Assembly (NCBI RefSeq): GCF_024298765.1 | Contig: NZ_CP101210.1 | Reading direction: 5' to 3' (one strand) | Length of the DNA: 64,000 nt | Source: Escherichia coli | GTDB taxonomy: Bacteria; Pseudomonadota; Gammaproteobacteria; Enterobacterales; Enterobacteriaceae | Part shown: positions 5,148 to 54,612 of the stretch, in pieces | Position numbering within the stretch: position 1 is the first letter of the stretch | Layout: each line of letters opens with the position of its first letter | Program-made: the position numbers and the translations under genes | The notes under the pieces: model-generated | Databases searched by the model: none | The model's input: only the letters and a program-made list of their open reading frames with translations | What the model was told of the DNA's origin: nothing

Positions 5148-6404
5148 ATGAGTGGACTCAAACAAGAACTGGGGCTGGCCCAGGGCATCGGCCTGCTATC
5201 GACGTCATTATTAGGCACCGGCGTGTTTGCCGTTCCTGCGTTAGCTGCACTGGTAGCAGGCAATAACAGCCTGTGGGCGTGGCCCGTTTTGATTATCTTA
5301 GTGTTCCCGATTGCGATTGTGTTTGCGATTCTGGGTCGCCACTATCCCAGCGCAGGCGGTGTCGCGCACTTCGTCGGTATGGCGTTTGGTTCACGGCTTG
5401 AGCGAGTCACCGGCTGGCTGTTTTTATCGGTCATTCCCGTGGGTTTGCCTGCCGCACTACAAATTGCAGCCGGATTCGGCCAGGCAATGTTTGGCTGGAA
5501 TAGCTGGCAACTGTTGTTGGCAGAACTCGGTACGCTGGCGTTGGTGTGGTATATCGGTACTCGCGGTGCCAGTTCCAGTGCTAATCTACAAACCGTTATT
5601 GCCGGACTTATCGTCGCGCTGATTGTCGCTATCTGGTGGGCGGGCGATATCAAACCTGCGAATATCCCCTTCCCTGCGCCAGGAAATATCGAACTTACCG
5701 GGTTATTTGCTGCGTTATCAGTGATGTTCTGGTGTTTTGTCGGTCTGGAAGCATTTGCCCATCTTGCCTCGGAATTTAAAAATCCAGAGCGTGATTTTCC
5801 TCGTGCTTTGATGATTGGTCTGCTGCTGGCAGGATTAGTCTACTGGGGCTGTACGGTAGTCGTCTTACACTTCGACGCCTATGGTGAACAAATGGCCGCG
5901 GCAGCATCGCTTCCAAAAATTGTAGTGCTGTTGTTCGGTGTAGGAGCGTTATGGATTGCCTGCGTGATTGGCTATCTGGCCTGCTTTGCCAGTCTCAACA
6001 TTTATATACAGAGCTTCGCCCGCCTGGTCTGGTCGCAGGCGCAACATAATCCTGACCACTACCTGGCACGCCTCTCTTCTCGCCATATCCCGAATAATGC
6101 CCTCAATGCGGTGCTCGGCTGCTGCGTGGTGAGCACGTTGGTGATTCATGCTTTAGGGATCAATCTGGACGCACTTATCATCTATGCCAATGGCATCTTT
6201 ATTATGATTTATCTGTTATGCATGCTGGCAGGCTGTAAATTATTGCAAGGACGTTATCGACTACTGGCGGTGGTTGGCGGGCTGTTATGCGTTCTGTTAC
6301 TGGCAATGGTCGGCTGGAAAAGTCTCTATGCGCTAATCATGCTGGCGGGGTTATGGCTGTTTCTGCCAAAACGAAAAACGCCGGAAAATGGCATAACCAC
6401 ATAA
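5148..6404 (+). CDS. yjeH: APC-family amino-acid (methionine/branched-chain) exporter YjeH
   Basis: Multi-pass membrane ORF (track 5088..6404); start chosen at MSGLKQELGL to give a 418-aa product as in K-12 YjeH; synteny next to groS. Confidence 0.8.
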   Translation: MSGLKQELGLAQGIGLLSTSLLGTGVFAVPALAALVAGNNSLWAWPVLIILVFPIAIVFAILGRHYPSAGGVAHFVGMAFGSRLERVTGWLFLSVIPVGLPAALQIAAGFGQAMFGWNSWQLLLAELGTLALVWYIGTRGASSSANLQTVIAGLIVALIVAIWWAGDIKPANIPFPAPGNIELTGLFAALSVMFWCFVGLEAFAHLASEFKNPERDFPRALMIGLLLAGLVYWGCTVVVLHFDAYGEQMAAAASLPKIVVLLFGVGALWIACVIGYLACFASLNIYIQSFARLVWSQAQHNPDHYLARLSSRHIPNNALNAVLGCCVVSTLVIHALGINLDALIIYANGIFIMIYLLCMLAGCKLLQGRYRLLAVVGGLLCVLLLAMVGWKSLYALIMLAGLWLFLPKRKTPENGITT

Positions 6405-6419
6405 TCCGGCGTTTCGGCA

Positions 6420-6896
6420 TTAATCCTGGCGATCGTCTTTATGATCAAGGCGGTCGTGGTCATCATCCTTTCGCTGGTACTCACCATCAAAAGTATTACC
6501 GCCACCGGTCCCGGCGCTAAAACCGCCGCCTGGCATGCGAGAAAAGCGCAAATGCGGCATCAACTTCACTGTCAGATGCTTTTGCACCGGCGGCAATAAA
6601 AGCAGAAGACCGAGGAAGTCGGTGAAAAAGCCCGGTAATAAAAGCAGCAAACCGGCAATGATCAGCGAAACACTTTTAATCATCTCCGCCGCTGGGTTTT
6701 CACCCGCCGCCATTTTTTGCTGCATCAGCACGAAATTCTTAAAGCCCTGGTTGCGTACCAGTGACATACCGATAACTGACGTGAATATAACCAGCACGAG
6801 GGTCAGCAATACCCCCAATACATGGGCAACCTGAATAAAGATTGAAATCTCAATATAGACATAAAGGAAAATGGCAATAAAAGGTAACCAGCGCAA
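6420..6896 (-). CDS. fxsA: inner-membrane protein FxsA
   Basis: 158-aa ORF with N-terminal TM helices and acidic C-terminal tail (KDDDHDRLDHKDDRQD); located between yjeH and aspA as in K-12. Confidence 0.85.
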   Translation of the reverse strand: MRWLPFIAIFLYVYIEISIFIQVAHVLGVLLTLVLVIFTSVIGMSLVRNQGFKNFVLMQQKMAAGENPAAEMIKSVSLIIAGLLLLLPGFFTDFLGLLLLLPPVQKHLTVKLMPHLRFSRMPGGGFSAGTGGGNTFDGEYQRKDDDHDRLDHKDDRQD

Positions 6897-7232
6897 AGGT
6901 TTCTCCTGTAATAGCAGCCGGTTAACCCCGGCTACCTGAATGGGTTGCGAATCGCGTTCAGCTTATATTGTGGTCATTAGCAAAATTTCAAGATGTTTGC
7001 GCAACTATTTTTGGTAGTAATCCCAAAGCGGTGATCTATTTCACAAATTAATAATTAAGGGGTAAAAACCGGCACTTAAAGTGATCCAGATTACGGTAGA
7101 AATCCTCAAGCAGCATATGATCTCGGGTATTCGGTCGATGCAGGGGATAATCGTCGGTCGAAAAACATTCGAAACCACATATATTCTGTGTGTTTAAAGC
7201 AAATCATTGGCAGCTTGAAAAAGAAGGTTCAC

Positions 7233-8669
7233 ATGTCAAACAACATTCGTATCGAAGAAGATCTGTTGGGTACCAGGGAAGTTCCAGCTGATGCCTACTA
7301 TGGTGTTCACACTCTGAGAGCGATTGAAAACTTCTATATCAGCAACAACAAAATCAGTGATATTCCTGAATTTGTTCGCGGTATGGTAATGGTTAAAAAA
7401 GCCGCAGCTATGGCAAACAAAGAGCTGCAAACCATTCCTAAAAGTGTAGCGAATGCCATCATTGCCGCATGTGATGAAGTCCTGAACAACGGAAAATGCA
7501 TGGATCAGTTCCCGGTAGACGTCTACCAGGGCGGCGCAGGTACTTCCGTAAACATGAACACCAACGAAGTGCTGGCCAATATCGGTCTGGAACTGATGGG
7601 TCACCAGAAAGGTGAATATCAGTACCTGAACCCGAACGACCATGTTAACAAATGTCAGTCCACTAACGACGCCTACCCGACCGGTTTCCGTATCGCAGTT
7701 TACTCTTCCCTGATTAAGCTGGTAGATGCGATTAACCAACTGCGTGAAGGCTTTGAACGTAAAGCTGTCGAATTCCAGGACATCCTGAAAATGGGTCGTA
7801 CCCAGCTGCAGGACGCAGTACCGATGACCCTCGGTCAGGAATTCCGCGCTTTCAGCATCCTGCTGAAAGAAGAAGTGAAAAACATCCAACGTACCGCTGA
7901 ACTGCTGCTGGAAGTTAACCTTGGCGCAACAGCAATCGGTACTGGTCTGAACACGCCGAAAGAGTACTCTCCGCTGGCAGTGAAAAAACTGGCTGAAGTC
8001 ACTGGCTTCCCATGCGTACCGGCTGAAGACCTGATCGAAGCGACCTCTGACTGCGGCGCTTATGTTATGGTTCACGGCGCGCTGAAACGCCTGGCTGTGA
8101 AGATGTCCAAAATCTGTAACGACCTGCGCTTGCTCTCTTCTGGTCCACGTGCCGGCCTGAACGAGATCAACCTGCCGGAACTGCAGGCGGGCTCTTCCAT
8201 CATGCCAGCTAAAGTAAACCCGGTTGTCCCGGAAGTGGTTAACCAGGTATGCTTCAAAGTCATCGGTAACGACACCACTGTTACCATGGCAGCAGAAGCA
8301 GGTCAGCTGCAGTTGAACGTTATGGAGCCGGTCATTGGCCAGGCCATGTTCGAATCCGTTCACATTCTGACCAACGCTTGCTACAACCTGCTGGAAAAAT
8401 GCATTAACGGCATCACTGCTAACAAAGAAGTGTGCGAAGGTTACGTTTACAACTCTATCGGTATCGTTACTTACCTGAACCCGTTCATCGGTCACCACAA
8501 CGGTGACATCGTGGGTAAAATCTGTGCCGAAACCGGTAAGAGTGTACGTGAAGTCGTTCTGGAACGCGGCCTGTTGACTGAAGCGGAACTTGACGATATT
8601 TTCTCCGTACAGAATCTGATGCACCCGGCTTACAAAGCAAAACGCTATACTGATGAAAGCGAACAGTAA
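7233..8669 (+). CDS. aspA: aspartate ammonia-lyase (aspartase)
   Basis: ORF track 7188..8669; start at [30 protein letters not shown] gives 478 aa; fumarase/aspartase signature [12 protein letters not shown] present. Confidence 0.97.
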
Positions 8670-8692
8670 TCGTACAGGGTAGTACAAATAAA

Positions 8693-8722
8693 GAAGGCAC
8701 GTCAGATGACGTGCCTTTTTTC
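8693..8722 (+). terminator. rho-independent terminator after aspA
   Basis: Hairpin ggcacgtcagatgacgtgcc followed by ttttttc. Confidence 0.7.
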
Positions 8723-8786
8723 TTGTGAGCAGTAACTTAAAAATAACAATCTAATATCAACTTGTTAAAAAACAAGGAAGGCTAAT

Positions 8787-10088
8787 ATGCTAGTTGTAGA
8801 ACTCATCATAGTTTTGCTGGCGATCTTCTTGGGCGCCAGATTGGGGGGAATAGGTATTGGTTTTGCAGGCGGATTGGGGGTGCTGGTTCTTGCCGCTATT
8901 GGCGTTAAACCCGGTAACATCCCGTTCGATGTCATTTCCATTATCATGGCGGTTATCGCCGCTATTTCTGCCATGCAGGTTGCTGGCGGTCTGGACTATC
9001 TGGTTCATCAGACAGAAAAGCTGCTGCGCCGTAACCCGAAATACATCACGATCCTCGCACCGATCGTGACCTATTTCCTGACTATCTTTGCTGGTACTGG
9101 CAACATCTCTCTGGCGACACTGCCAGTTATCGCTGAAGTTGCGAAGGAACAAGGCGTTAAACCTTGCCGTCCGCTGTCTACTGCAGTGGTATCCGCGCAG
9201 ATTGCGATCACCGCATCGCCAATCTCAGCAGCAGTGGTTTACATGTCTTCCGTGATGGAAGGTCATGGCATCAGCTACCTCCATCTGCTCTCCGTGGTCA
9301 TCCCGTCCACCCTGCTGGCGGTTCTGGTGATGTCCTTCCTGGTCACTATGCTGTTCAACTCCAAACTCTCTGACGATCCGATTTATCGCAAGCGTCTGGA
9401 AGAGGGCCTGGTTGAACTGCGCGGTGAAAAGCAGATTGAAATCAAATCCGGTGCAAAAACGTCCGTCTGGCTATTCCTGCTGGGCGTAGTTGGCGTGGTT
9501 ATCTATGCAATCATCAACAGCCCAAGCATGGGTCTGGTTGAAAAACCGCTGATGAACACCACCAACGCAATCCTGATCATCATGCTCAGCGTTGCAACTC
9601 TGACCACCGTTATCTGTAAAGTCGATACCGACAACATCCTCAACTCCAGCACCTTCAAAGCAGGTATGAGCGCCTGTATTTGTATCCTGGGTGTTGCGTG
9701 GCTGGGCGATACTTTCGTTTCCAACAACATCGACTGGATCAAAGATACCGCTGGTGAAGTGATTCAGGGTCATCCGTGGCTGCTGGCCGTCATCTTCTTC
9801 TTTGCTTCTGCTCTGCTGTACTCTCAGGCTGCAACCGCAAAAGCACTGATGCCGATGGCTCTGGCACTGAACGTTTCTCCTCTGACCGCTGTTGCTTCTT
9901 TCGCTGCGGTGTCTGGTCTGTTCATTCTGCCGACCTACCCGACGCTGGTTGCTGCGGTACAGATGGATGACACGGGTACTACCCGTATCGGTAAATTCGT
10001 CTTCAACCATCCGTTCTTCATCCCGGGTACTCTGGGTGTTGCCCTGGCCGTTTGCTTCGGCTTCGTGCTGGGTAGCTTCATGCTGTAA
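8787..10088 (+). CDS. dcuA: anaerobic C4-dicarboxylate transporter DcuA
   Basis: 433-aa polytopic membrane ORF immediately downstream of aspA (aspA-dcuA operon arrangement). Confidence 0.95.
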   Translation: MLVVELIIVLLAIFLGARLGGIGIGFAGGLGVLVLAAIGVKPGNIPFDVISIIMAVIAAISAMQVAGGLDYLVHQTEKLLRRNPKYITILAPIVTYFLTIFAGTGNISLATLPVIAEVAKEQGVKPCRPLSTAVVSAQIAITASPISAAVVYMSSVMEGHGISYLHLLSVVIPSTLLAVLVMSFLVTMLFNSKLSDDPIYRKRLEEGLVELRGEKQIEIKSGAKTSVWLFLLGVVGVVIYAIINSPSMGLVEKPLMNTTNAILIIMLSVATLTTVICKVDTDNILNSSTFKAGMSACICILGVAWLGDTFVSNNIDWIKDTAGEVIQGHPWLLAVIFFFASALLYSQAATAKALMPMALALNVSPLTAVASFAAVSGLFILPTYPTLVAAVQMDDTGTTRIGKFVFNHPFFIPGTLGVALAVCFGFVLGSFML

Positions 10089-38337: not shown

Positions 38338-41300
38338 TATTTACCTCCGGGTGCATTGTTAAATACTTTTTCAATCGGGCGACCTCCATCTATCGAATAT
38401 ACTACTTTAAATTTAGCAGGTCTGACACTATCCCCAATATACGATGGCTGAATGTTGACCTTAACCTCTTTTCCTTCACCCAATGCTTTTGCCCAAGTAT
38501 TTTCCATCTGCTTCCAGGCTCCTTTGTTCAGATTTCCATCCATTGGAACAAGGTTCAATTTTTCACCAGGACCATTAAAAATACTGGCTATTAAATGACC
38601 ACCCTCATCTCCATCAAGGCCACACTTACCTGCTTTACATTGTTGATAGCCATTTCTATCCTTTACATTAGGACTAAGAGTTGCTTCAACCTGGCTTGGC
38701 CTTGCCTGAGCATCAGTTTTATAAATTTTATCACCATCTACATGATAAACTTTATTCGGCTGTGGGTTATTTAGCTCTTTGCTCCAGTTCCCTTTACCAC
38801 CTGAGTCTAGCATCAGCTTTTCAAGTGACTCCGCACTGATTTTCTGACCTGTCTGTTTTTCAACAGCCATTAGAGCCTTCAACTCTGACAACTCGCTGGC
38901 AGACATTTTACCAACCGCCGCTACTGTCAGGCCCGCTGGAAGAGCATCGCCAGCGACCATTTCCGCAACCCAGATACTAACTTCATTTGCACACAGCACA
39001 GTATTCGCACCACAGGCACTGACTGCTGCCTGGGCGGCTGCAATTGCTTCCGGAGTCAGAGCAATCACTACCCCACCTGTAGCCCCCCCAACAAGCGCTG
39101 CTGCAATCGCTTTGTTTACAGCCTCACCGCGTTTACATTCAGCCCCGCCAGGGTTAGTCGAGCAGGACGCAATATCTTTGCCATGCTCCTGCACGAACTT
39201 GGTCTGAGTGTCTTCATTACCACCCAGCAGGTTATTCTCAACAACATTCTTCCCAGCAGCAGCTCCGGTAGCCACACCCGCAGTATTCCCACCTGCAACA
39301 CCACCCGCCATACCTGCTGAGATACTCGCCAGCGTACTTAGCGTCTGCTTCTGGTCCTCGGTCAGCTTCGACAGGTCTTTCTCATCCGGATATAAAACCT
39401 TCGCGATTGCACCTGCGATAAGTTCACCGCTCACCGCACCGACTGAACCTGCTGCGGCATTATTTCCCTGAAGAGCCGCAGTCACACCGCCGAGAATGGC
39501 ATGAGCAATGGCTTTCGCTGCATCGTTATCATTAATTCCAGCATTGTGCCCTATGAAGTTTGCCAGTTCCGGTGCAGAAGCTCCGGCCAGAGCACCCGCT
39601 AAATTCCCCCCAGCCAGTCCCTGAAGCGCGGCTGTCGCGGCCTGGATACCCCGCTGCATATCGCTACCGGTACCATACTTTTCCTGTTCCTTTTTGTATT
39701 CCGGCGTATCACGCAGTTTTGCCAGATATGCCTGCCGCTGTTCTTCCGTCGTATCCGCCGGAACAGGCCCATATTTATCCTGCGCAGCCTTCAACGCATT
39801 CAGTTCACCCTGCGTCCGCGCGATATCCGCCACCTGACTGCCTATGTCACTGATAAGCCCCACTGTCTGCAGACGCCTCTGCTCTTTCTCCTTGTCAAAT
39901 ATCGGGCTGATACTGTCGTTGGCGTGTTCCGGGTCACGGCTCAGGTTCGCCAGATTCTGCTTCTGATTGTCCCTGTCCCGGATGGTGATAGTGCCTTCTG
40001 CCACTGCGGCCTGAGTCGTTCCTTCCGCATGTCCGCTGTGACCTCCGGCGGATATCATGCCACCCGGCATGTTACCCTGAAATTTATCCCCGAAGCTGCC
40101 ACCACCGCTCAGACTGATTCCACTGTGACTGACTTTATAATCCGCTTCGTTGTGAAGGTCACTGAACCCCAGCGTTCCGGTATCCAGGTGGTTTTTATCC
40201 GGTGTGGCAGTGGAGGCAATCACCGCACCATCCAGTTGGGTATGTTTACCCACTGTGATGTCGAAGCCGCCGTCACCGGCAAACATTCCGGTTTGTTCAG
40301 CAACGGAGTCAAAGCGGCTCTTCATCTTATCCCGGGAGGCAGCGATGTAACCTGAGCCGGTCATGGAGCCAAAGGTAAAACTGCCGCCGGCAGCCACGCT
40401 GGTCTGTTTACTGTCGTACTTACTGGTGTCCTGCTGGCTGCTTATCAGCAGGTCGTGGCCCACATCGGCGATAATCCTGTTGCCGTTGACCTGAGCACCG
40501 TTCAGTACCGTATCCCGACCACTGTTGATGGTGACGGTTTTACCGCTGTCTATTGTGGTTTCAGTCCACTCAGTACCGTTACCTTTCTCGCTGCCTTTTG
40601 CCGCATTAACGCTGGCAAAGACACTGATACCGGCACCGTTACCACCGGCACCGATACTGACACCCACGCCACCGCCACTGCTGCTGTTCCTGCCCGTTGT
40701 TTTTTGTGTGTTTGCCGCGCCACTCAACAGAACATCATTCGCAGCATCCAGGTTTGTGTTACCACCGGCCTTAAGCTGGCTTCCGGCAATCACAATATCT
40801 CCGCGGTTATCGCCCCTGTTTTTACCGGTTGCGACAACAGACAGATTATTCCCGGCATTCAGCGTACTGCCGGATACTGTGTCACTTTCAGAATGTTGTT
40901 GTGATTTCGATTTCTGGGTGGTGAGCGACAGGCTGACTCCCATCGCATTCGGGTCACCGGTTGCGGAGGCCATTGCCGCAGCCTGTCCGGCCTGCACACC
41001 AGACAGCGCTGTCTTTGTAGCCTGCAGGGTTTTCAGACGGCTGTCACTGCTCTCCTTCGTCTCCTGTGCACTGGTGACCGCATTATTGATGGCACTGCCC
41101 ACTGTGCCGGAAAGGGCAACCGTCAGCCCGCTTTTCTTCTGCTCAAATTTTTCGTCCACAGTACGACGGTCATGCCCCGGGTCAACCACCACACTGTCAC
41201 CGGTAATGCTGATATCCCGGTTCGCAATCACATCCGAACCGCTGATATGAGCCTGTTTGCCCGCGGTAATACTGACATTACCGGCAGTGGAGCCGATGGT

Positions 41301-41801
41301 ACTGGCACTCTGACTCTGCGTTGTCCCGGCCTCGCGGCGGTCGTGCGTTGTCTTACTGCTGCCAATGGTGAAGCCAATACCGCCGGTACCCATCAGACCG
41401 GATTTCTTCGTTTCCTTAAAGCGCCAGGACGTATCTGTACTGGTGGCAGCAAGAACATCAACATGGTTACCCGCCGCCAGTGACACATCCCGGTCAGCCA
41501 CCACATCCGAACCCTCTACCGTCAGGTTATCACCGGCGTTAACGGTCACGCGGTTCCCCGACAGCAGGGAGCCTGCTTCACGGGAGGCACTGTTCTCACT
41601 GATGGTGTGGGTGGTTTTCTTACTGAGAAAACCTCCGCTTTTTTTCTTCGTTTCCAGATAGTGATAGTCACTTTCTGTCGCCGTGGTCAGGGCGACATCA
41701 CGACCGGCATTCACACTGATATTGCCGGTTGCGGTAACGGATGACGCAACAGCGGTGATACGCATACTGAAGAGCATTCCGTATAAAGATTCAGCTGGCA
41801 A
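38337..41801 (-). CDS. cdiA: 5-prime-truncated contact-dependent inhibition toxin CdiA fragment (FHA-repeat region, pretoxin VENN, variable CT toxin domain)
   Basis: 1154-aa ORF rich in Gly/Ser/Thr beta-helical repeats; VENN motif ([11 protein letters not shown]) encoded at 39231..39242; about 298-aa CT after VENN; no TPS domain or cdiB upstream. Confidence 0.8.
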
Positions 41802-42581: not shown

Positions 42582-43026
42582 GAAATGTTCCTTTTCAAAC
42601 CCTGTTGGATTTTGTCAAGACGGTACAGACACAGTAAAGCGCGCATCAACACCTGAAAGGTACGATACAAACACAAGTTACAAACAATAAGAACGGAAGG
42701 ACAATTAATCAGTGAGGAATAATAACTAAATTAACCAAAAGAATGTTACTGACAATACCACCAATACTTAAATAGCAATATATTAATTAATGTAAGAACA
42801 GATGCCCGGTAAGACATATACACAATACATCCACAAACACACTCTTTTCATTAAATAAATCACCTGATTAAACCATGAAAGTGTGATGTAAGTCAAAATT
42901 ACTGACACAATCAATTGATAATGATTATCTCTATCATTATCGTGAAATTCGAGAATGAAAGGAGAAGTAGTCATTATAAGTCTTTTATAAATCGTCATCA
43001 TCATAGTAAAGTAGAACACTTTTTAT

Positions 43027-49266: not shown

Positions 49267-50817
49267 TTACACTGTGTTTCTTATCGGTTCAAGATATCCA
49301 AATGCATCTCTGGAAAACTTAAGCATAAAATTTTTCATATCAGAAATTGCTTCTTGTAAAAAAAGGGGATCATCGCCATGATTATCCAGCAGGATGGCAA
49401 TTTTTTCGCACATATTCTCTTTCCTCAGCTCTTCCCTGGGTTGCAGCCTTTTCATGGTATGATGTTCAATTTCTTTCAGGAGTAATGAGGCATTTATCTG
49501 ACGTCTGGTACTGCCTTGCGTCAGCCAGTGGATGGCCTGGGAAAAACACTGTTGTGCAACGGTGAAATAAACATCATTCTTGATGCTACTATTCAGTGCC
49601 TGCTTTTGATTATGCCTATGATGGATTAGCGTCACAACCAACTTTTGCAATGGTGAACCATCCTGATTGACAATATCTTGGGCATGTGATTTCTCGCAGT
49701 ATTGATTGAGTAATGCAACAAAACTGTTAACCAGTTCTTTCAATATATCAGGTATCTCTTTTTGTGTTATAAATTCTCCAGGAATACCCAACAGTTCTAG
49801 ATAACAGTAATAACATGCTTCATGAAAAGTTTTCTGAAATATCTCCTCAACCTTCAAACGGGCTGCAAGAGTGAAGTCAGGGTCAAACATATATTTTCCG
49901 ATATACAAGCAGAGATCAGACAGCCCTTGCATAAGTACCATCGGTTCTTTTGCCAGTTCAGCTAATCTTAGTTTATACCCAAAATCAGCTGGGGAATCTC
50001 CCGGAAACAGACAACTGAGTCCGCTAAAATCCATTAATCTGCCATCCATTGCAATATTAGAAGGAGAAGTTGTCAATCTCAGGAAACGTGTTCGACAAAA
50101 TGCCATTTGCCAGGCCTCACGACGTGCCAGTTCACATAACCCCTCAATGCAATAAATCCGGGGATCAGTTCGTGCTTCAGCATCAATTTCTTCCGGTGGT
50201 ACAGGTAGATATCCTGGCAGCTTGTGGATCACAGATCTAACCCGACAGGCATCGTGAATTAACAGACTGGAATACTCCGGTTTTACTTGGAAGTAAGGTG
50301 CCCGTTCAAAATGCGCCGGACGAACAACAGGCTCACGTACCAACAGGGCTCTTCGTGATTTCCTACCGGAGCGCTCAAATGCCTTTTCAGTATAGAGATC
50401 TGTAAGTAAAACCGCCCGAACCCGCACAGCACTATAAGGTAATATTTGAGCCAGTACTTCTCCCCACAAAGCCTCATATATTGCATGAACAGCGCCGAGT
50501 GCACCATTAGAATGACGTTCGTCAGTACCTTCGCCAACCAACGGATTACTTCCTATTCCTTTAACCTGGTAGTTACCATCAAACCCACAACGTGCACCAC
50601 CTCCATTACGCTGAATACCACTGCCACCATAGCGCTCTGCATGGAACACTTTGGCAGAAGCTGTACTGCCAGGATCGATAATATAACTGCAGGCATTTTG
50701 CAGCTCGTCTGGATTTCTGACATCCTCTGCACACCAGATTAATGAGGCCTTGATCTGCCTGGCAGTGAAAGGCACCAGGTTTTCATTCAGTTCAGAAAGT
50801 GAACACTGATGACTCAT
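49267..50817 (-). CDS. mchC: microcin maturation protein (MchC/MceJ-like)
   Basis: 516-aa ORF immediately downstream of mchB; size and position match remembered MchC. Confidence 0.6.
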   Translation of the reverse strand: MSHQCSLSELNENLVPFTARQIKASLIWCAEDVRNPDELQNACSYIIDPGSTASAKVFHAERYGGSGIQRNGGGARCGFDGNYQVKGIGSNPLVGEGTDERHSNGALGAVHAIYEALWGEVLAQILPYSAVRVRAVLLTDLYTEKAFERSGRKSRRALLVREPVVRPAHFERAPYFQVKPEYSSLLIHDACRVRSVIHKLPGYLPVPPEEIDAEARTDPRIYCIEGLCELARREAWQMAFCRTRFLRLTTSPSNIAMDGRLMDFSGLSCLFPGDSPADFGYKLRLAELAKEPMVLMQGLSDLCLYIGKYMFDPDFTLAARLKVEEIFQKTFHEACYYCYLELLGIPGEFITQKEIPDILKELVNSFVALLNQYCEKSHAQDIVNQDGSPLQKLVVTLIHHRHNQKQALNSSIKNDVYFTVAQQCFSQAIHWLTQGSTRRQINASLLLKEIEHHTMKRLQPREELRKENMCEKIAILLDNHGDDPLFLQEAISDMKNFMLKFSRDAFGYLEPIRNTV

Positions 50818-51088
50818 CTGGCAGTATTCTCCGTTTCAATTTTCATAAAAGAGTGTTCATAAAAGAGCAAGTAAGTGTCCTGACAGCTTCTTCCTTATTA
50901 CAGTAAAACTCTATTAATTACACATAAATTAAAAAATTATTTATCAACGACTGTAAATCATATCTTCATCAGTAAAGTGTTGAACATAAAAACACACTTA
51001 TAAATGGATCTTCTATCTGTTTTAAACAAAAAGGATATATTTTACAGGTACTACCGAAAAAGTGCCTGTAAAATAAATAAAAATATAA

Positions 51089-51316
51089 TTAGCTACCGCC
51101 ACCAGCAGAAGAACTGGCACTACCACTTCCCACGGTCGAGCCAATTGCTGTTGTCAAACCGGCAGATACGGCTCCAACTACAACCCCAAGTGGACCACCA
51201 GGTATTCCGGCGAGAGCTCCAACAATAGCTGCAGCACCTGCAGCATTAGCTGAAGTCGCTGGCGCACCTCCCGCCCCGGAAATATATCTTAACTGTGATT
51301 CTGTTATTTCTGGCAT
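51089..51316 (-). CDS. mchB: microcin H47 precursor
   Basis: 75-aa ORF M(P)EITESQLRYISGA-GGAPATSANAAGAAAIVGALAGIPGGPLGVVVGAVSAGLTTAIGSTVGSGSASSSAGGGS; core matches remembered MccH47 sequence. Confidence 0.9.
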   Translation of the reverse strand: MPEITESQLRYISGAGGAPATSANAAGAAAIVGALAGIPGGPLGVVVGAVSAGLTTAIGSTVGSGSASSSAGGGS

Positions 51317-51343
51317 ATAAACTGCATATAAACTCCATCATAT

Positions 51344-51553
51344 TTAACTTCCGTTTTTCCAGTCTGACCAGACCAGAATCCTTCGAATCCCATGAATCAG
51401 CTCAATAAAACCAAGAAATATTATAAAGCTTAGAAAAACGTCAACATAAGAATTCCCTTCGCCAACAATCCGAAGGGATGAAAGTGAAACCAATAAGATA
51501 GTAATAGGTAAACTGAATATAGCCGTCAATTGGGACAGTTTTTTATAACTCAT
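51344..51553 (-). CDS. mchI: microcin H47 immunity protein
   Basis: 69-aa hydrophobic ORF immediately upstream of mchB on same strand; size matches MchI. Confidence 0.75.
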   Translation of the reverse strand: MSYKKLSQLTAIFSLPITILLVSLSSLRIVGEGNSYVDVFLSFIIFLGFIELIHGIRRILVWSDWKNGS

Positions 51554-51964
51554 TAATCCCTACCTGTTGCTTTATTTTCATTATGAAAAGTTACCAAATC
51601 TTAGCACCTCAGTCAGGAGAGTCAGGTCATCGATAAAGAATATTCCAGTAGAGTGGCGCTCATGATCAAAGATAACAGCAAAGTTGATGACAGTGCTGAC
51701 CGACTGTCATTTACAGAAACCCTGTTTGTAGCAAATTCCATCTTACCTGACCTCACCCAGACAAAGACAAAAGAGAATGATTGTTATTTACTTTTCAAAA
51801 AAAGTGTCATATTGTCCATATAAAGTCAAGAGGTATTTTACGTTATGTCACTGATGCAATTGTTAGTCAGGATCTCATGGTTGTCGCTCATGTATAACCT
51901 GAGACTTGAACGCACACTAATAGCGCTGACGGTCATACATCGGGAAATGTGAGGAGGCATAAGA

Positions 51965-52210
51965 ATGAATTGTGATAATAATCACAGAAATGAAGAATTC
52001 ATTGTTACCTTTGATAAAGGCAACAAGCAAGACAATTCAAGACGAAAACACGATAATTTTCCTATAGAGGTAGAATCCTCCGTAGAGCAGGAGACACACT
52101 GTATCACAAATAATAAGTCAGCTTCCGGTATAGTAACACATGACTATGATGCCGATTATATTTGTGGTTGTGGTGAAATTATGTGTCCTGGTTGCGGTCA
52201 TGACCTATAA
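51965..52210 (+). CDS. small Cys-rich hypothetical protein
   Basis: 81-aa ORF with C-terminal CGCGEIMCPGCGH cluster; no family assignable; coding status uncertain. Confidence 0.3.
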   Translation: MNCDNNHRNEEFIVTFDKGNKQDNSRRKHDNFPIEVESSVEQETHCITNNKSASGIVTHDYDADYICGCGEIMCPGCGHDL

Positions 52211-52365
52211 CAAACATTTTTGCAAACTGATACCTGATCAGGTACAAGCCTGTTGATTATTATGCTGAATATTTCATGTTATAAAACCATCGATATAAAC
52301 ATTAACAAGAAAAAACATATATTGTTTATCTGAACATTTATCGATGGAAAACCAAAGGGGAAAGT

Positions 52366-52800
52366 ATGTATCTTACGAAAAAGATTATAATAAGTATGAT
52401 GTTTATATTACCATCTGCTGCATTTTCATCAGATCCACCTCCCCTTCAACAATCGTTAGAAAAAACAACCTATTTTTCTATAGGTATGAATGGGTTTATA
52501 GGCTATCAGAGCGAAGGGGAAAAATTATACACACACATTCTTACATTAGATAATCCCGAAGAGATATTTAAAAATATAATAGAAAATAGAAAGTCAACTA
52601 AGGAGTCTAAAATTTATGCTGCTTGTGGGCTATATTATTTAAACGTAGAAAATATAGAGTCATTGTTTAATGAAAATGATAAACAAGAATATATGTCTGT
52701 CTTAAGAGGGGATATTTTAACAAAAATAAAACTGAATGATATTCTGAATTCTGTGATAATAAATGGTTGCAACACCAAATTAATATCTGAACATAAATGA
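52366..52800 (+). CDS. secreted small protein adjacent to microcin-like precursor (possible immunity/accessory protein)
   Basis: 144-aa ORF with Sec signal peptide (MYLTKKIIISMMFILPSAAFS); ends 16 nt before the precursor gene. Confidence 0.45.
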   Translation: MYLTKKIIISMMFILPSAAFSSDPPPLQQSLEKTTYFSIGMNGFIGYQSEGEKLYTHILTLDNPEEIFKNIIENRKSTKESKIYAACGLYYLNVENIESLFNENDKQEYMSVLRGDILTKIKLNDILNSVIINGCNTKLISEHK

Positions 52801-52816
52801 GCAGGAGGTTTTTAAA

Positions 52817-53053
52817 ATGAGAGAAATATCAGATCACATGCTTGATTTCGTGAAAGGAGGGATGAATCTTAATGGATTACCTAGTTCTACTAATGTAATA
52901 GATCTACGAGGAAAAGATATGGGAACATATATTGATGCTAATGGAACATGCTGGGCTCCGGGTACTCCATCCATCATCATGTATCCGGGGGGAAGTGGAC
53001 CTTCTTATAGTATGAGTAGTTCCACATCCAGCGTAAACAGCGGCACATCATAA
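52817..53053 (+). CDS. double-glycine-leader class IIb microcin-like precursor (possibly MccI47-type; identity not confirmed)
   Basis: 78-aa ORF; leader MREISDHMLDFVKGG; Ser-rich C-terminus SMSSSTSSVNSGTS; located next to IroD/IroB homologues. Confidence 0.6.
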   Translation: MREISDHMLDFVKGGMNLNGLPSSTNVIDLRGKDMGTYIDANGTCWAPGTPSIIMYPGGSGPSYSMSSSTSSVNSGTS

Positions 53054-53337
53054 ATACCCTCCGGCATGGCCGGAGGGTATTTATGATGTGCCTGTAAGAC
53101 TCTACTTCTGTCGTCTCTTTACAAAGGCATATGATCTGTCATTTTGTACCAGACATCTTAACGAGAGCCTTTTCATATATTACTTACATACGTGAAATCT
53201 ACAGTATAAAGCAAAAATTTTATTAAACCTGTTTTATATTTATCATCAATACAACAGATTTAATTCCGGAAAGTCACTCATCATCCCTTGAATGAACGTC
53301 ATTTGATGTATTATTCTTACACTTGGATTAATTTAAG

Positions 53338-54612
53338 ATGATACCTATGAAAAACTATCTTTTCCAGACTCCCGAAGATATTTGTGTACAGTTAAAAAAA
53401 ATGACACATCCTGTCACAATAAGAACAACAGATATTGCTAATTTCTGGCACTATCTTGAGTCAGCAACACTTCCAGTGATCACAAAAAGCACCACTACAG
53501 AAAATCGGGAGGTTACATTTCTGTGGCGCTCAGAGAAAGCACTGCAAGGCGTATATCTTCGCCTGAATCGTGTTACAGATAAAAAAGACGTCAAAAAAGG
53601 ACTAATGACTCATATCCCTTCGACAGATATCTGGATGCTGACACTGGTGTTACCAGCTTCATATCGGGGCTCATACTCATTTATAGAAATTCCCACAGAT
53701 ATGACACAAAAAGACATATTTCAACTAGGAAGTCGCTTCTCTCCATTACCCGGTAAATCTGATCCATTTAACAAAACAGCAGAAATAAATATACGAGGAT
53801 TCGGAGAATCAGTCCTTTCTCTTGATATGGCTCCTGAACAAAAGGAATGGGATGATACTTCCCATAAATGTACAGGTATTCTTTCAATATTACATTCCTT
53901 TGTTGCAGGATATCAACGCCGGATTCGTTTATATTTCCCCCTGAATCCAACATCAGTACCTCTTGGATTACTTGTGTTACCTGATGCTGAAACATGGTTT
54001 GACCGGATAGATATTACCCGGGCATTAGATATGGCCATCACCACTGGTCGTATCACGCCAATGGCAATTATGGGGATAGACAATATTAATGAATCTGATC
54101 GTATGAATATACTGGGAGGCAATAAAGAACTCATCTTTGATATAGCGGAAAATCTGATACCCCAGTTATACAGAGACTATCCGGATATCGTATGGGCTGG
54201 TCGCTCTAATACTGTACTGGCCGGGCAGAGCCTCGGTGGAGTGACAGCACTGATGGCAGCTATATATGCGTCGACAACATTTGGTACAATCATTAGTCAC
54301 TCACCTTCAATGTGGTGGAACCCTGACCAGGGCAGCCCGATCTTGTTTACTGAGAATAATACCTCCTGGGTAAGTGAGCAGATACTTTCAGCGCCTCCGA
54401 AAGATGTAAATATCCGACTTGGAGTCGGTTCTTTAGAAGGTACAACCGTCTCACATGTTCAGCGATTGCATCATTCGTTAATCGCAGCTGGTTTGGAAAG
54501 TAACCTCACTGTCTATACCGGTGGTCACGATTATGCTTGGTGGCGCGGAGCAATTATTGATGAATTAGCAAATTATAATTGCAGGAAGGTATCAAATAAT
54601 AACTCTGTGTAA
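53338..54612 (+). CDS. enterobactin/salmochelin esterase homologue (IroD/Fes-like; MceD/McmK/MchS1-type)
   Basis: 424-aa ORF with serine-hydrolase motif GQSLGG. Confidence 0.7.
   Translation: MIPMKNYLFQTPEDICVQLKKMTHPVTIRTTDIANFWHYLESATLPVITKSTTTENREVTFLWRSEKALQGVYLRLNRVTDKKDVKKGLMTHIPSTDIWMLTLVLPASYRGSYSFIEIPTDMTQKDIFQLGSRFSPLPGKSDPFNKTAEINIRGFGESVLSLDMAPEQKEWDDTSHKCTGILSILHSFVAGYQRRIRLYFPLNPTSVPLGLLVLPDAETWFDRIDITRALDMAITTGRITPMAIMGIDNINESDRMNILGGNKELIFDIAENLIPQLYRDYPDIVWAGRSNTVLAGQSLGGVTALMAAIYASTTFGTIISHSPSMWWNPDQGSPILFTENNTSWVSEQILSAPPKDVNIRLGVGSLEGTTVSHVQRLHHSLIAAGLESNLTVYTGGHDYAWWRGAIIDELANYNCRKVSNNNSV

Follow-up and report, generated by a model that had tools for sequence, protein, structure and literature searches.

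mchS4 of the Escherichia coli microcin H47/I47 island belongs to a cysteine-tailed family spread across Enterobacterales and probably promotes enterobactin supply

Siderophore-microcins (H47, M, I47 and E492) underlie probiotic and colonisation properties, for example those of E. coli Nissle 1917, and are engineered as narrow-spectrum antibacterials. In the MccH47 system, MchS4 has been reported to promote enterobactin production (Azpiroz & Lavina 2004, Antimicrob Agents Chemother 48:1235, cited in PMC10380612 and PMC6071977), and one citing paper calls mchS4 "the single gene responsible" for the excess of enterobactin made by that system (PMC10380612). A named relative outside E. coli is MceE of the E492 cluster, whose function is given as undefined in two papers (PMC6071977, PMC7680869) and whose C-terminal similarity to MchS4 was noted earlier (PMC6071977). 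According to the same source, mceE has a mapped transcription start site and a monocistronic mRNA, possesses its own Fur box with 68% identity to the consensus, and shares with mceX an intergenic region that binds Fur in vivo by FurTA (PMC6071977). Fur binding at the mceE promoter region therefore ties the MchS4/MceE family to the iron regulon. The gene described below is already known, because it is named MchS4 in UniProt and its phenotype is reported in citing papers, and its family partner MceE likewise has a name already.

The stretch of E. coli DNA that we analysed (64,000 nucleotides, referred to here as the window) holds an 81-residue, Cys-rich ORF between the MccH47 module on the minus strand and the MccI47 module on the plus strand, just where the original prediction had placed it (Table 1). 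The homology search that had been proposed as a check was informative. The ORF is identical at 80 of 81 positions to the UniProt/UniRef entry Q712P8_ECOLX, "MchS4 protein", with which it shares a 90% cluster; the one difference is Q42L. The deposited MchS4 of the E. coli H47 system is equally long and likewise sits between mchX and mchS3; the ORF is an allele of the same gene, and the L42 allele is also present in two further E. coli loci (L003 and L004). The exact 81-residue sequence, seen on at least 1000 contigs, occurs in a collection of 15 billion proteins within a cluster of 221 members, and the annotation at the same place in NZ_CP070071.1 is the RefSeq "hypothetical protein" WP_001327745.1. 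We consider it virtually certain that the ORF is mchS4 and that it encodes a protein. The gene is an accessory gene of the chromosomal E. coli microcin H47/I47 island.

Table 1. Features of the mchS4 region and members of the MchS4/MceE family in other loci
Locus	Feature	Coordinates	Strand	Remarks
Window	mchC	49267-50817	-	
Window	mchB (MccH47)	51089-51316	-	
Window	mchI	51344-51553	-	
Window	mchX	51622-51741	-	39 aa, MEFATNRVSVNDSRSALSSTLLLSLIMSATLLEYSLSMT; exact match to UniRef Q83ZA9 "MchX"
Window	mchX/mchS4 intergenic region	51742-51964		223 nt, divergent
Window	Fur-box-like site GAGAATGATTGTTATTTAC	51773-51791		14/19 to E. coli consensus; mchX-proximal
Window	Shine-Dalgarno GAGGAGG	51951-51957	+	7 nt 5' of mchS4 ATG, read from sequence
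Window	mchS4 ORF	51965-52210	+	ATG start, 81 aa plus stop; MNCDNNHRNEEFIVTFDKGNKQDNSRRKHDNFPIEVESSVEQETHCITNNKSASGIVTHDYDADYICGCGEIMCPGCGHDL
Window	conserved C-terminal motif YICGCGEIMCPGCGHDL	52157-52207	+	residues 65-81; invariant C67 G68 C69 G70 C74 G76 C77
Window	mchS3	52366-52800	+	MccI47 module; immunity/precursor pair with mchS2
Window	mchS2 (MccI47 precursor)	52817-53053	+	
Window	mchS1, enterochelin esterase (IroD-like)	53338-54612	+	annotated "alpha/beta hydrolase-fold protein"; downstream of mchS4
K. pneumoniae-type E492 cluster	MceE			114 aa; tail YICGCGCESCCGCGHDL
Salmonella	family member			112 aa
K. oxytoca	family member			86 aa; tail YICGCGCACCCGCGHDF
Raoultella	family member			94 aa; tail YICGCGCDCCCGCGHDL
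L016	Salmonella 86-aa type			plasmid-like contig
L018	52-aa type	8001-8159		40 nt upstream of esterase gene 8199-9440, same strand
L019	Rouxiella 97-aa type	5724-6017		60 nt upstream of esterase gene 6079-7335, same strand

The original prediction had also expected the small regulator gene mchX in the region of this ORF, and here it has to be corrected. Like MchX/MceX, the ORF is a small gene that lies in the same clusters and in the same intergenic neighborhood, with a Fur-box region common to both. MchX, however, is a hydrophobic 39-residue peptide encoded just ahead of mchI on the opposite strand. It ends in LEYSLSM(T/F), lacks a Cys motif and has no similarity to MchS4; homologues with the LEYSLSM tail were found in five other loci (L007, L009, L013, L015 and L016). 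We therefore rejected the ORF as a candidate for MchX/MceX, given its 81 residues, its opposite orientation and the lack of the LEYSLSM(T/F) end. The 39-residue peptide encoded nearby matches Q83ZA9 exactly, so that mchX and the ORF are separate genes on opposite strands, 224 nt apart.

The mchS4 protein has a mass of 9.1 kDa, a pI of 4.8 and a GRAVY of -0.9. It ends in YICGCGEIMCPGCGHDL, in which the Cys cluster CGCGEIMCPGCGH spans residues 67-79 and is followed by D, L and the stop codon. We found no signal peptide or transmembrane segment (the maximum Kyte-Doolittle value over 15-residue windows is 0.77), and the very low GRAVY of the first 25 residues (-1.63) agrees with the earlier observation that no signal peptide is obvious. 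AlphaFold2, run on a 24-sequence alignment, returned a model without secondary structure at a pLDDT of 52. This result fits a disordered chain in which order might arise only around a bound metal, something that the method does not model. We take MchS4 to be a small, acidic, hydrophilic and probably largely disordered cytoplasmic protein. Ribosome-binding-site and codon scoring had been proposed as checks, and both favor a gene: the Shine-Dalgarno sequence GAGGAGG, 7 nt upstream of the start codon, is a strong one, and GC content declines from the first to the third codon position (GC1>GC2>GC3, 0.46/0.34/0.29), a gradient seen in most neighboring island genes.

Within E. coli, an 801-nt region around the gene was found in 291 of 5426 complete genomes, on the chromosome in every case. 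The reading frame and its start codon are preserved in six of six E. coli loci with 97.8-100% regional identity, where the Shine-Dalgarno sequence is identical throughout, and the three substitutions across these loci (two synonymous, one nonsynonymous) are too few for an informative dN/dS. In CFT073 the gene is intact though an IS element has replaced everything downstream of it. Frameshifted or truncated versions are rare, with 1-17 member sequences as against 221 in the intact cluster. No match to the ORF was found by tblastn among 72,556 plasmids. An exhaustive phmmer search of 1.84 billion representatives returned E. coli fragments only, apart from two repeat proteins that we rejected as spurious, one an out-of-frame repeat translation (P0023) and the other a Bacteroidota HYR-type repeat protein (P0024). 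MceE lies out of reach of single-sequence searches with MchS4. Since such searches stay inside E. coli, we examined the neighborhoods of MchC homologues in other genera.

This approach revealed a small gene with the same tail, at the same place beside the MchC homologue, in four loci from other genera, three of which also have a detectable mchX-like gene; none was detected in the Salmonella locus (L012). A profile built from five sequences, E. coli MchS4 and the members from these four loci, recovered 43 protein clusters, and all clusters with a named organism belong to Enterobacterales (Klebsiella, Salmonella, Raoultella, Cedecea, Dryocola, Rouxiella and E. coli). When 24 members are aligned, the first two thirds of the proteins can hardly be matched up, while C67, G68, C69, G70, C74, G76 and C77 are invariant in 24 of 24 sequences and G78 and L81 nearly so. 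The family thus shares the C-terminal pattern [YN]-[IV]-C-G-C-G-x3-C-x-G-C-G-[HYL]-[DE]-[LF] with which the proteins end, and the E. coli ORF conforms to it. The tail His is usually conserved, with Tyr or Leu in its place in a few members. E. coli MchS4 has four Cys residues in its tail and most relatives have six or seven, that is, two or three extra, which the E. coli protein has lost. As a noncircular test of membership, we searched the 1158 six-frame ORFs of the window with an HMM made from the 22 non-E. coli members; the ORF was the sole significant match (E 2.1e-8, 31.3 bits), the next best scoring an E-value of 5.3.

MceE (P0148) illustrates both the likeness and the distance within the family. 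Its C-terminal 20 residues are 70% identical to those of MchS4 (DDNYICGCGCESCCGCGHDL versus DADYICGCGEIMCPGCGHDL), its gene diverges from mceX as mchS4 does from mchX, and the two genes share an M-N-x start and a Shine-Dalgarno sequence at the same spacing. MceE is, however, 33 residues longer, its N-terminal region cannot be aligned with that of MchS4, and its tail has six Cys. The pairwise BLASTP match (70% over 20 residues, E 1.5) is not significant, so the relationship is easy to miss. Domain resources are equally silent: neither the ORF nor any of 24 family members reached threshold in Pfam or NCBIfam, the best subthreshold Pfam values being an E of about 0.06 for MchS4 and 0.042 (Zn_Ribbon_Topo) for one other member. 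In the PDB the profile gave no hit and both tail peptides nothing significant, the best match (E 5.3) being a small zinc-finger protein. When a degenerate DNA pattern for the motif was run over 100,044 species-representative genomes, the one match, in a Chlorobiota MAG, was rejected as chance; it is not contained in an ORF of 40 aa or more and coincides in part with the start of an acetyltransferase gene encoded on the opposite strand. The species-representative genomes evidently lack microcin islands.

The original prediction had left the coding status uncertain, and the reading to be weighed is that a stretch of AT-rich intergenic DNA merely happens to be open, its conservation stemming from regulatory DNA or RNA. 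Open reading frames of at least 81 aa arise in 5.8% of shuffles of the 812-nt span between mchI and mchS3; ORF length is weak evidence, and the case for the gene therefore rests on conservation. A chance frame would also agree with the lack of a fold in AlphaFold and with the fact that PGAP does not annotate the ORF in many assemblies. The pattern of change argues against it. Twelve tail residues are identical in five genera, and the codons for nine of the 12 vary synonymously (TGT/TGC; GGT/GGA/GGC/GGG), so that the tail DNA differs mainly at synonymous third positions. The two unsaturated pairs give dN/dS values of 0.31 (K. pneumoniae versus Salmonella, with five synonymous and no nonsynonymous changes in the last 17 codons) and 0.30 (K. 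oxytoca versus Raoultella). Conservation extends to the start codon and to the Shine-Dalgarno sequence, for which five homologous loci of other genera have GGAG-like sequences with unchanged spacing. Rfam gave no match in 50800-53400, and the homologue mceE has a mapped transcript (PMC6071977). We regard the chance frame as exceedingly improbable; judged from the codon pattern, the dN/dS values and the match to the non-E. coli HMM, it would already count as refuted. The original prediction had considered that conservation might be lacking or confined to nucleotides with frameshifts; what we find instead is conservation of the protein, with synonymous changes and no frameshifts. Taken with the intact gene in six of six E. 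coli loci, the synonymous codon pattern and dN/dS now make it clear that mchS4 is coding, and the Cys tail is the only constrained part of the protein, with strong protein-level selection there.

What this tail might do was framed earlier as a metal-binding or RiPP-like motif, and the two halves of that suggestion have fared differently. The Cys cluster is the constrained part of the protein and is consistent with a metal-binding motif. CPxCG is the classical knuckle of rubredoxin and zinc-ribbon motifs. MchS4 likewise has a CPxCG (C74-P-G-C77-G), placed after a CxCG, in which it resembles rubredoxin, zinc ribbons and HVO_2753-like zinc fingers; in rubredoxins and zinc ribbons, however, the half-sites are much farther apart than the 4 residues between those of MchS4. 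A C-x4-C-x2-C spacing is also present in the Cys-rich Fe-S loop of FeoC, which we take as a lead only. The RiPP half found no support, there being neither a leader nor a modifying enzyme. On this alternative the ORF would encode a RiPP-type precursor, with a modified Cys/Gly core of a thiazole or metal-chelating kind, or an exported microcin-like peptide. Alternating Cys and Gly have a superficial likeness to azole-forming cores, that of microcin B17 for example, and a variable N-terminus followed by a conserved C-terminus loosely recalls a leader/core layout. In RiPPs, however, it is usually the leader that is conserved and the core that varies, the reverse of the pattern in MchS4. The N-terminus, MNCDNNHRNEEF, contains no double-glycine (GG/GA) leader, and the tail ends in GHDL with no Ser/Gly-rich acceptor. 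The flanking 14 kb on each side yielded no cyclodehydratase, dehydrogenase or radical-SAM enzyme, all neighboring enzymes having an assigned part in the maturation or export of microcins, and a cognate immunity gene is lacking, the adjacent mchS3 and mchS2 being an immunity/precursor pair of their own. The published phenotype is intracellular (siderophore output). Taken together, these points leave a precursor or exported peptide very unlikely, and we proceed with a cytoplasmic protein whose Cys tail may bind metal.

The surroundings of the family offer a second view of its function. An MchS4-like gene was located in eight loci, each of them a class IIb microcin cluster (the window, L007, L010, L012, L013, L016, L018 and L019). 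The gene diverges from an mchX-like gene in five of the eight (the window, L007, L010, L013 and L016); in the other three it diverges from the mchC/microcin operon, and no mchX-like gene was found there. For the distant members in L016, L018 and L019 the divergent operon is microcin-mchC-mchD. An MchS4-like gene is absent from three MchC-containing clusters (L009, L014 and L015), and MchS4 is therefore an accessory and not a universal component, as far as this small sample goes. In L018 and L019 the MchS4-like gene directly precedes the esterase gene, and this suggests an original "S4-esterase" unit into which the MccI47 module (mchS3-mchS2) has been inserted in E. coli H47.

Such an arrangement raises the possibility that MchS4/MceE acts on the enterobactin-modifying module itself, as a small protein that partners, helps to assemble or regulates the esterase (MchS1/MceD), the glycosyltransferase or the Ent enzymes; blocked intracellular hydrolysis of enterobactin or iron release, for example, would raise siderophore output indirectly. 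The short distance to a same-strand esterase gene in L018 and L019 (40-60 nt) speaks for this, as does the presence of an esterase and/or a glycosyltransferase gene in eight of eight loci with an MchS4-like gene, a small sample, together with the lack of all of these genes in L009 and L015. Against it, L014 has both the esterase and the glycosyltransferase and lacks an MchS4-like gene, again in a small sample, and CFT073-type islands retain mchS4 despite the deletion of mchS1 and mchA. An action on the module seems to us rather unlikely as the function of the protein. That the mchS4 protein promotes enterobactin production we consider probable.

The divergent intergenic region bears on how that effect might arise. 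The 223 nt between mchX and mchS4 probably hold both promoters. Our consensus scan found no convincing sigma-70 promoter for mchS4, and a terminator scan at the gene gave a single weak terminator-like hairpin with an RNA fold z of -0.24, no better than shuffles. Aligned across six genera, the region shows a conserved block, about 75 nt long and toward mchX, which contains the Fur-box-like site, 174 nt upstream of the mchS4 ATG. This site, GAGAATGATTGTTATTTAC, is identical to the box of K. pneumoniae mceX (L007 7437-7455), and a Fur-box match of 13-16/19 occurs at the equivalent place in eight of eight loci scanned. Its 14/19 identity corresponds to 74%, in agreement with the value in PMC6071977. 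The K. pneumoniae locus has a promoter-proximal site matching the mceE Fur box (GATTATGTTAACTACTATT, 13/19, L007 7284-7302), which is without counterpart in E. coli; beside E. coli mchS4 we found no mceE-type Fur box, the best matches reaching 12/19, at 51856 and inside codons 2-7.

The conserved Fur box also furnishes the main rival account of the published phenotype. Provided that the original clones included the native DNA ahead of mchS4, enterobactin overproduction could largely be a DNA effect, in which a multicopy Fur box titrates Fur and so relieves the ent genes of repression, and the protein would have a different role. MccH47 studies were reportedly done with cloned systems. The Fur-box-like site upstream of mchS4 and its identity to the mceX box fit such an effect, and plasmids with the mceE/mceX intergenic region de-repress a Fur-controlled reporter in vivo (PMC6071977). 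Several observations stand on the other side: the attribution of the phenotype to mchS4 as the single responsible gene in citing papers (PMC10380612), the strong protein-level selection on the tail, which shows that the protein does something, and the intactness of the ORF in islands such as CFT073, which titration leaves unexplained. On balance we hold Fur titration to be unlikely, both as the main source of the phenotype and as a reason to seek another role for the protein, and we return to enterobactin production as the probable business of MchS4.

One way in which the protein could act can be outlined. C67-x-C69 and C74-P-G-C77-G, with the usually conserved H79, would form one short metal or Fe-S site. 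Through this site MchS4 might sequester iron, or might interfere directly with Fur or with iron sensing. The Fur regulon, including the ent genes, would then be de-repressed, and siderophore supply would be matched to the demand of microcin production; the raised enterobactin supply would secure the building of the siderophore moiety by MchA, MchS1, MchC and MchD. This metal-knuckle/Fur mechanism is a tentative proposal drawn from the sequence of the tail, and we think it has less than an even chance of being right. The explanation as a whole, in which mchS4 serves enterobactin supply and its tail is taken to contain a Cys4 site, is the best that we can offer, and we put moderate confidence in it. 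Counting against it are the lack of a fold in AlphaFold and of any Pfam, NCBIfam or PDB relative, the nonsignificant BLASTP match to MceE, the class IIb clusters that do without the gene, the Cys residues lost from the E. coli tail and the replaced His of a few members.

To the known gene our analysis adds a family delimited across at least seven genera, a definition of the part under selection as four invariant Cys in an 11-residue tail, a fixed position of the family at the head of the enterobactin-modifying module, and a concrete confound for the published phenotype, in that the conserved Fur box next to the gene may titrate Fur. Microcin maturation consumes enterobactin, and an island factor that raises its supply is therefore relevant for production strains. 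Such a factor also exemplifies the tuning of a host's iron metabolism by a mobile element. More speculatively, and with better odds of being wrong than right, MchS4/MceE could represent a novel type of very small anti-Fur or iron-sensing effectors with a Cys4 site (for Fe, Zn or Fe-S), carried on mobile siderophore-microcin islands, which by binding iron or Fur would switch on host enterobactin for toxin maturation. If this were true, few metal-sensing modules known from nature would be shorter than the invariant 11-residue CGCG-x3-C-x-GC site.

The divergently oriented mchX and mchS4 genes are separated by DNA that includes a block of ∼75 nt conserved in six genera (A3, an alignment of this intergenic region), the conserved parts of which read …AAGAGAATGATTGTTATTTACTTTT…TGACATATT…CACAnAAGTCAAnTGTTATTTT. 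The block contains the Fur-box-like site together with TTGACT and TGACAT elements, so the two divergent promoters probably have it in common as their regulatory core. Just within the mchS4 CDS, codons 2-7 carry an inverted repeat, GTGATAATAATCAC, which agrees with the Fur consensus at 12 of 19 positions and is a candidate operator. Conservation of the N-terminal residues C/S-D-N-N-H, found in a Salmonella homologue as well, accounts for part of this repeat. Past the mchS4 stop codon, at a distance of 19 nt, there is a perfect palindrome of 14 nt, TACCTGATCAGGTA. It is not convincing as a terminator because the RNA around it folds no better than shuffled sequences (z -0.24); the palindrome could instead be a protein-binding site. 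When the Fur consensus was scanned against the whole window, the best matches fell at two locations upstream of the microcin export region, where they may mark further iron-regulated genes.

Coordinates of the features discussed (window positions unless another locus is named)
Feature	Locus	Coordinates	Strand	Detail
mchX	window	51622-51741	-	
Conserved intergenic block	window	51760-51835		
mchS4	window	51965-52210	+	
Inverted repeat	window	51968-51986		
Palindrome	window	~52229-52242		
mchS2	window	52817-53053	+	
Cys-rich frame	window	39238-39381	-	stop-to-stop
Fur-consensus matches	window	42911-42941		17/19 at 42917; overlapped by 15/19 at 42923 and 14/19 at 42911
Fur-consensus match	window	41657-41675		15/19
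CFT073-type truncated island	L002	3354-3611 and 3962-5111		
MchS4-like and esterase genes	L018	8001-9440	same	
MchS4-like and esterase genes	L019	5724-7335	same	

A scan for CGCG also returned a second frame in the window, of 47 aa and with a Cys-rich tail. The frame does not score against the MchS4 family profile (E 82) and is thus probably an out-of-frame translation within another gene.

We note that RefSeq/PGAP annotates the H47 island unevenly among the E. coli loci (L001-L006 and L020). Neither mchX nor mchS2, the gene for the MccI47 precursor, is annotated in any of the seven, and mchS4 is called a "hypothetical protein" in some assemblies and left out of others with an identical ORF. 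In truncated islands of the CFT073 type (L002), an IS3-family element stands in place of mchS3, mchS2, mchS1, and mchA. The element lies ∼350 nt downstream of mchS4, which is still intact; identity is 99.6% for the Nissle 1917 region.

Beyond E. coli, the class IIb microcin cluster of two Salmonella enterica contigs (L016 and L017) is complete and includes an MchS4-like gene of 86 aa (tail ...NICGCGSDECCGCGHDLW), the product of which is listed in 641 blocks of the assembly collection. The relaxase, PsiA, and Hok genes also found on these contigs make it probable that the cluster is located on a conjugative plasmid. In two other distant clusters, an MchS4-like gene (52 aa in L018, 97 aa in L019) is followed by a same-strand enterochelin-esterase gene, with a gap within 40-60 nt in each case. 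This gene order suggests that the MchS4-like and esterase genes formed an ancestral two-gene unit, which the MccI47 module interrupts in E. coli H47.
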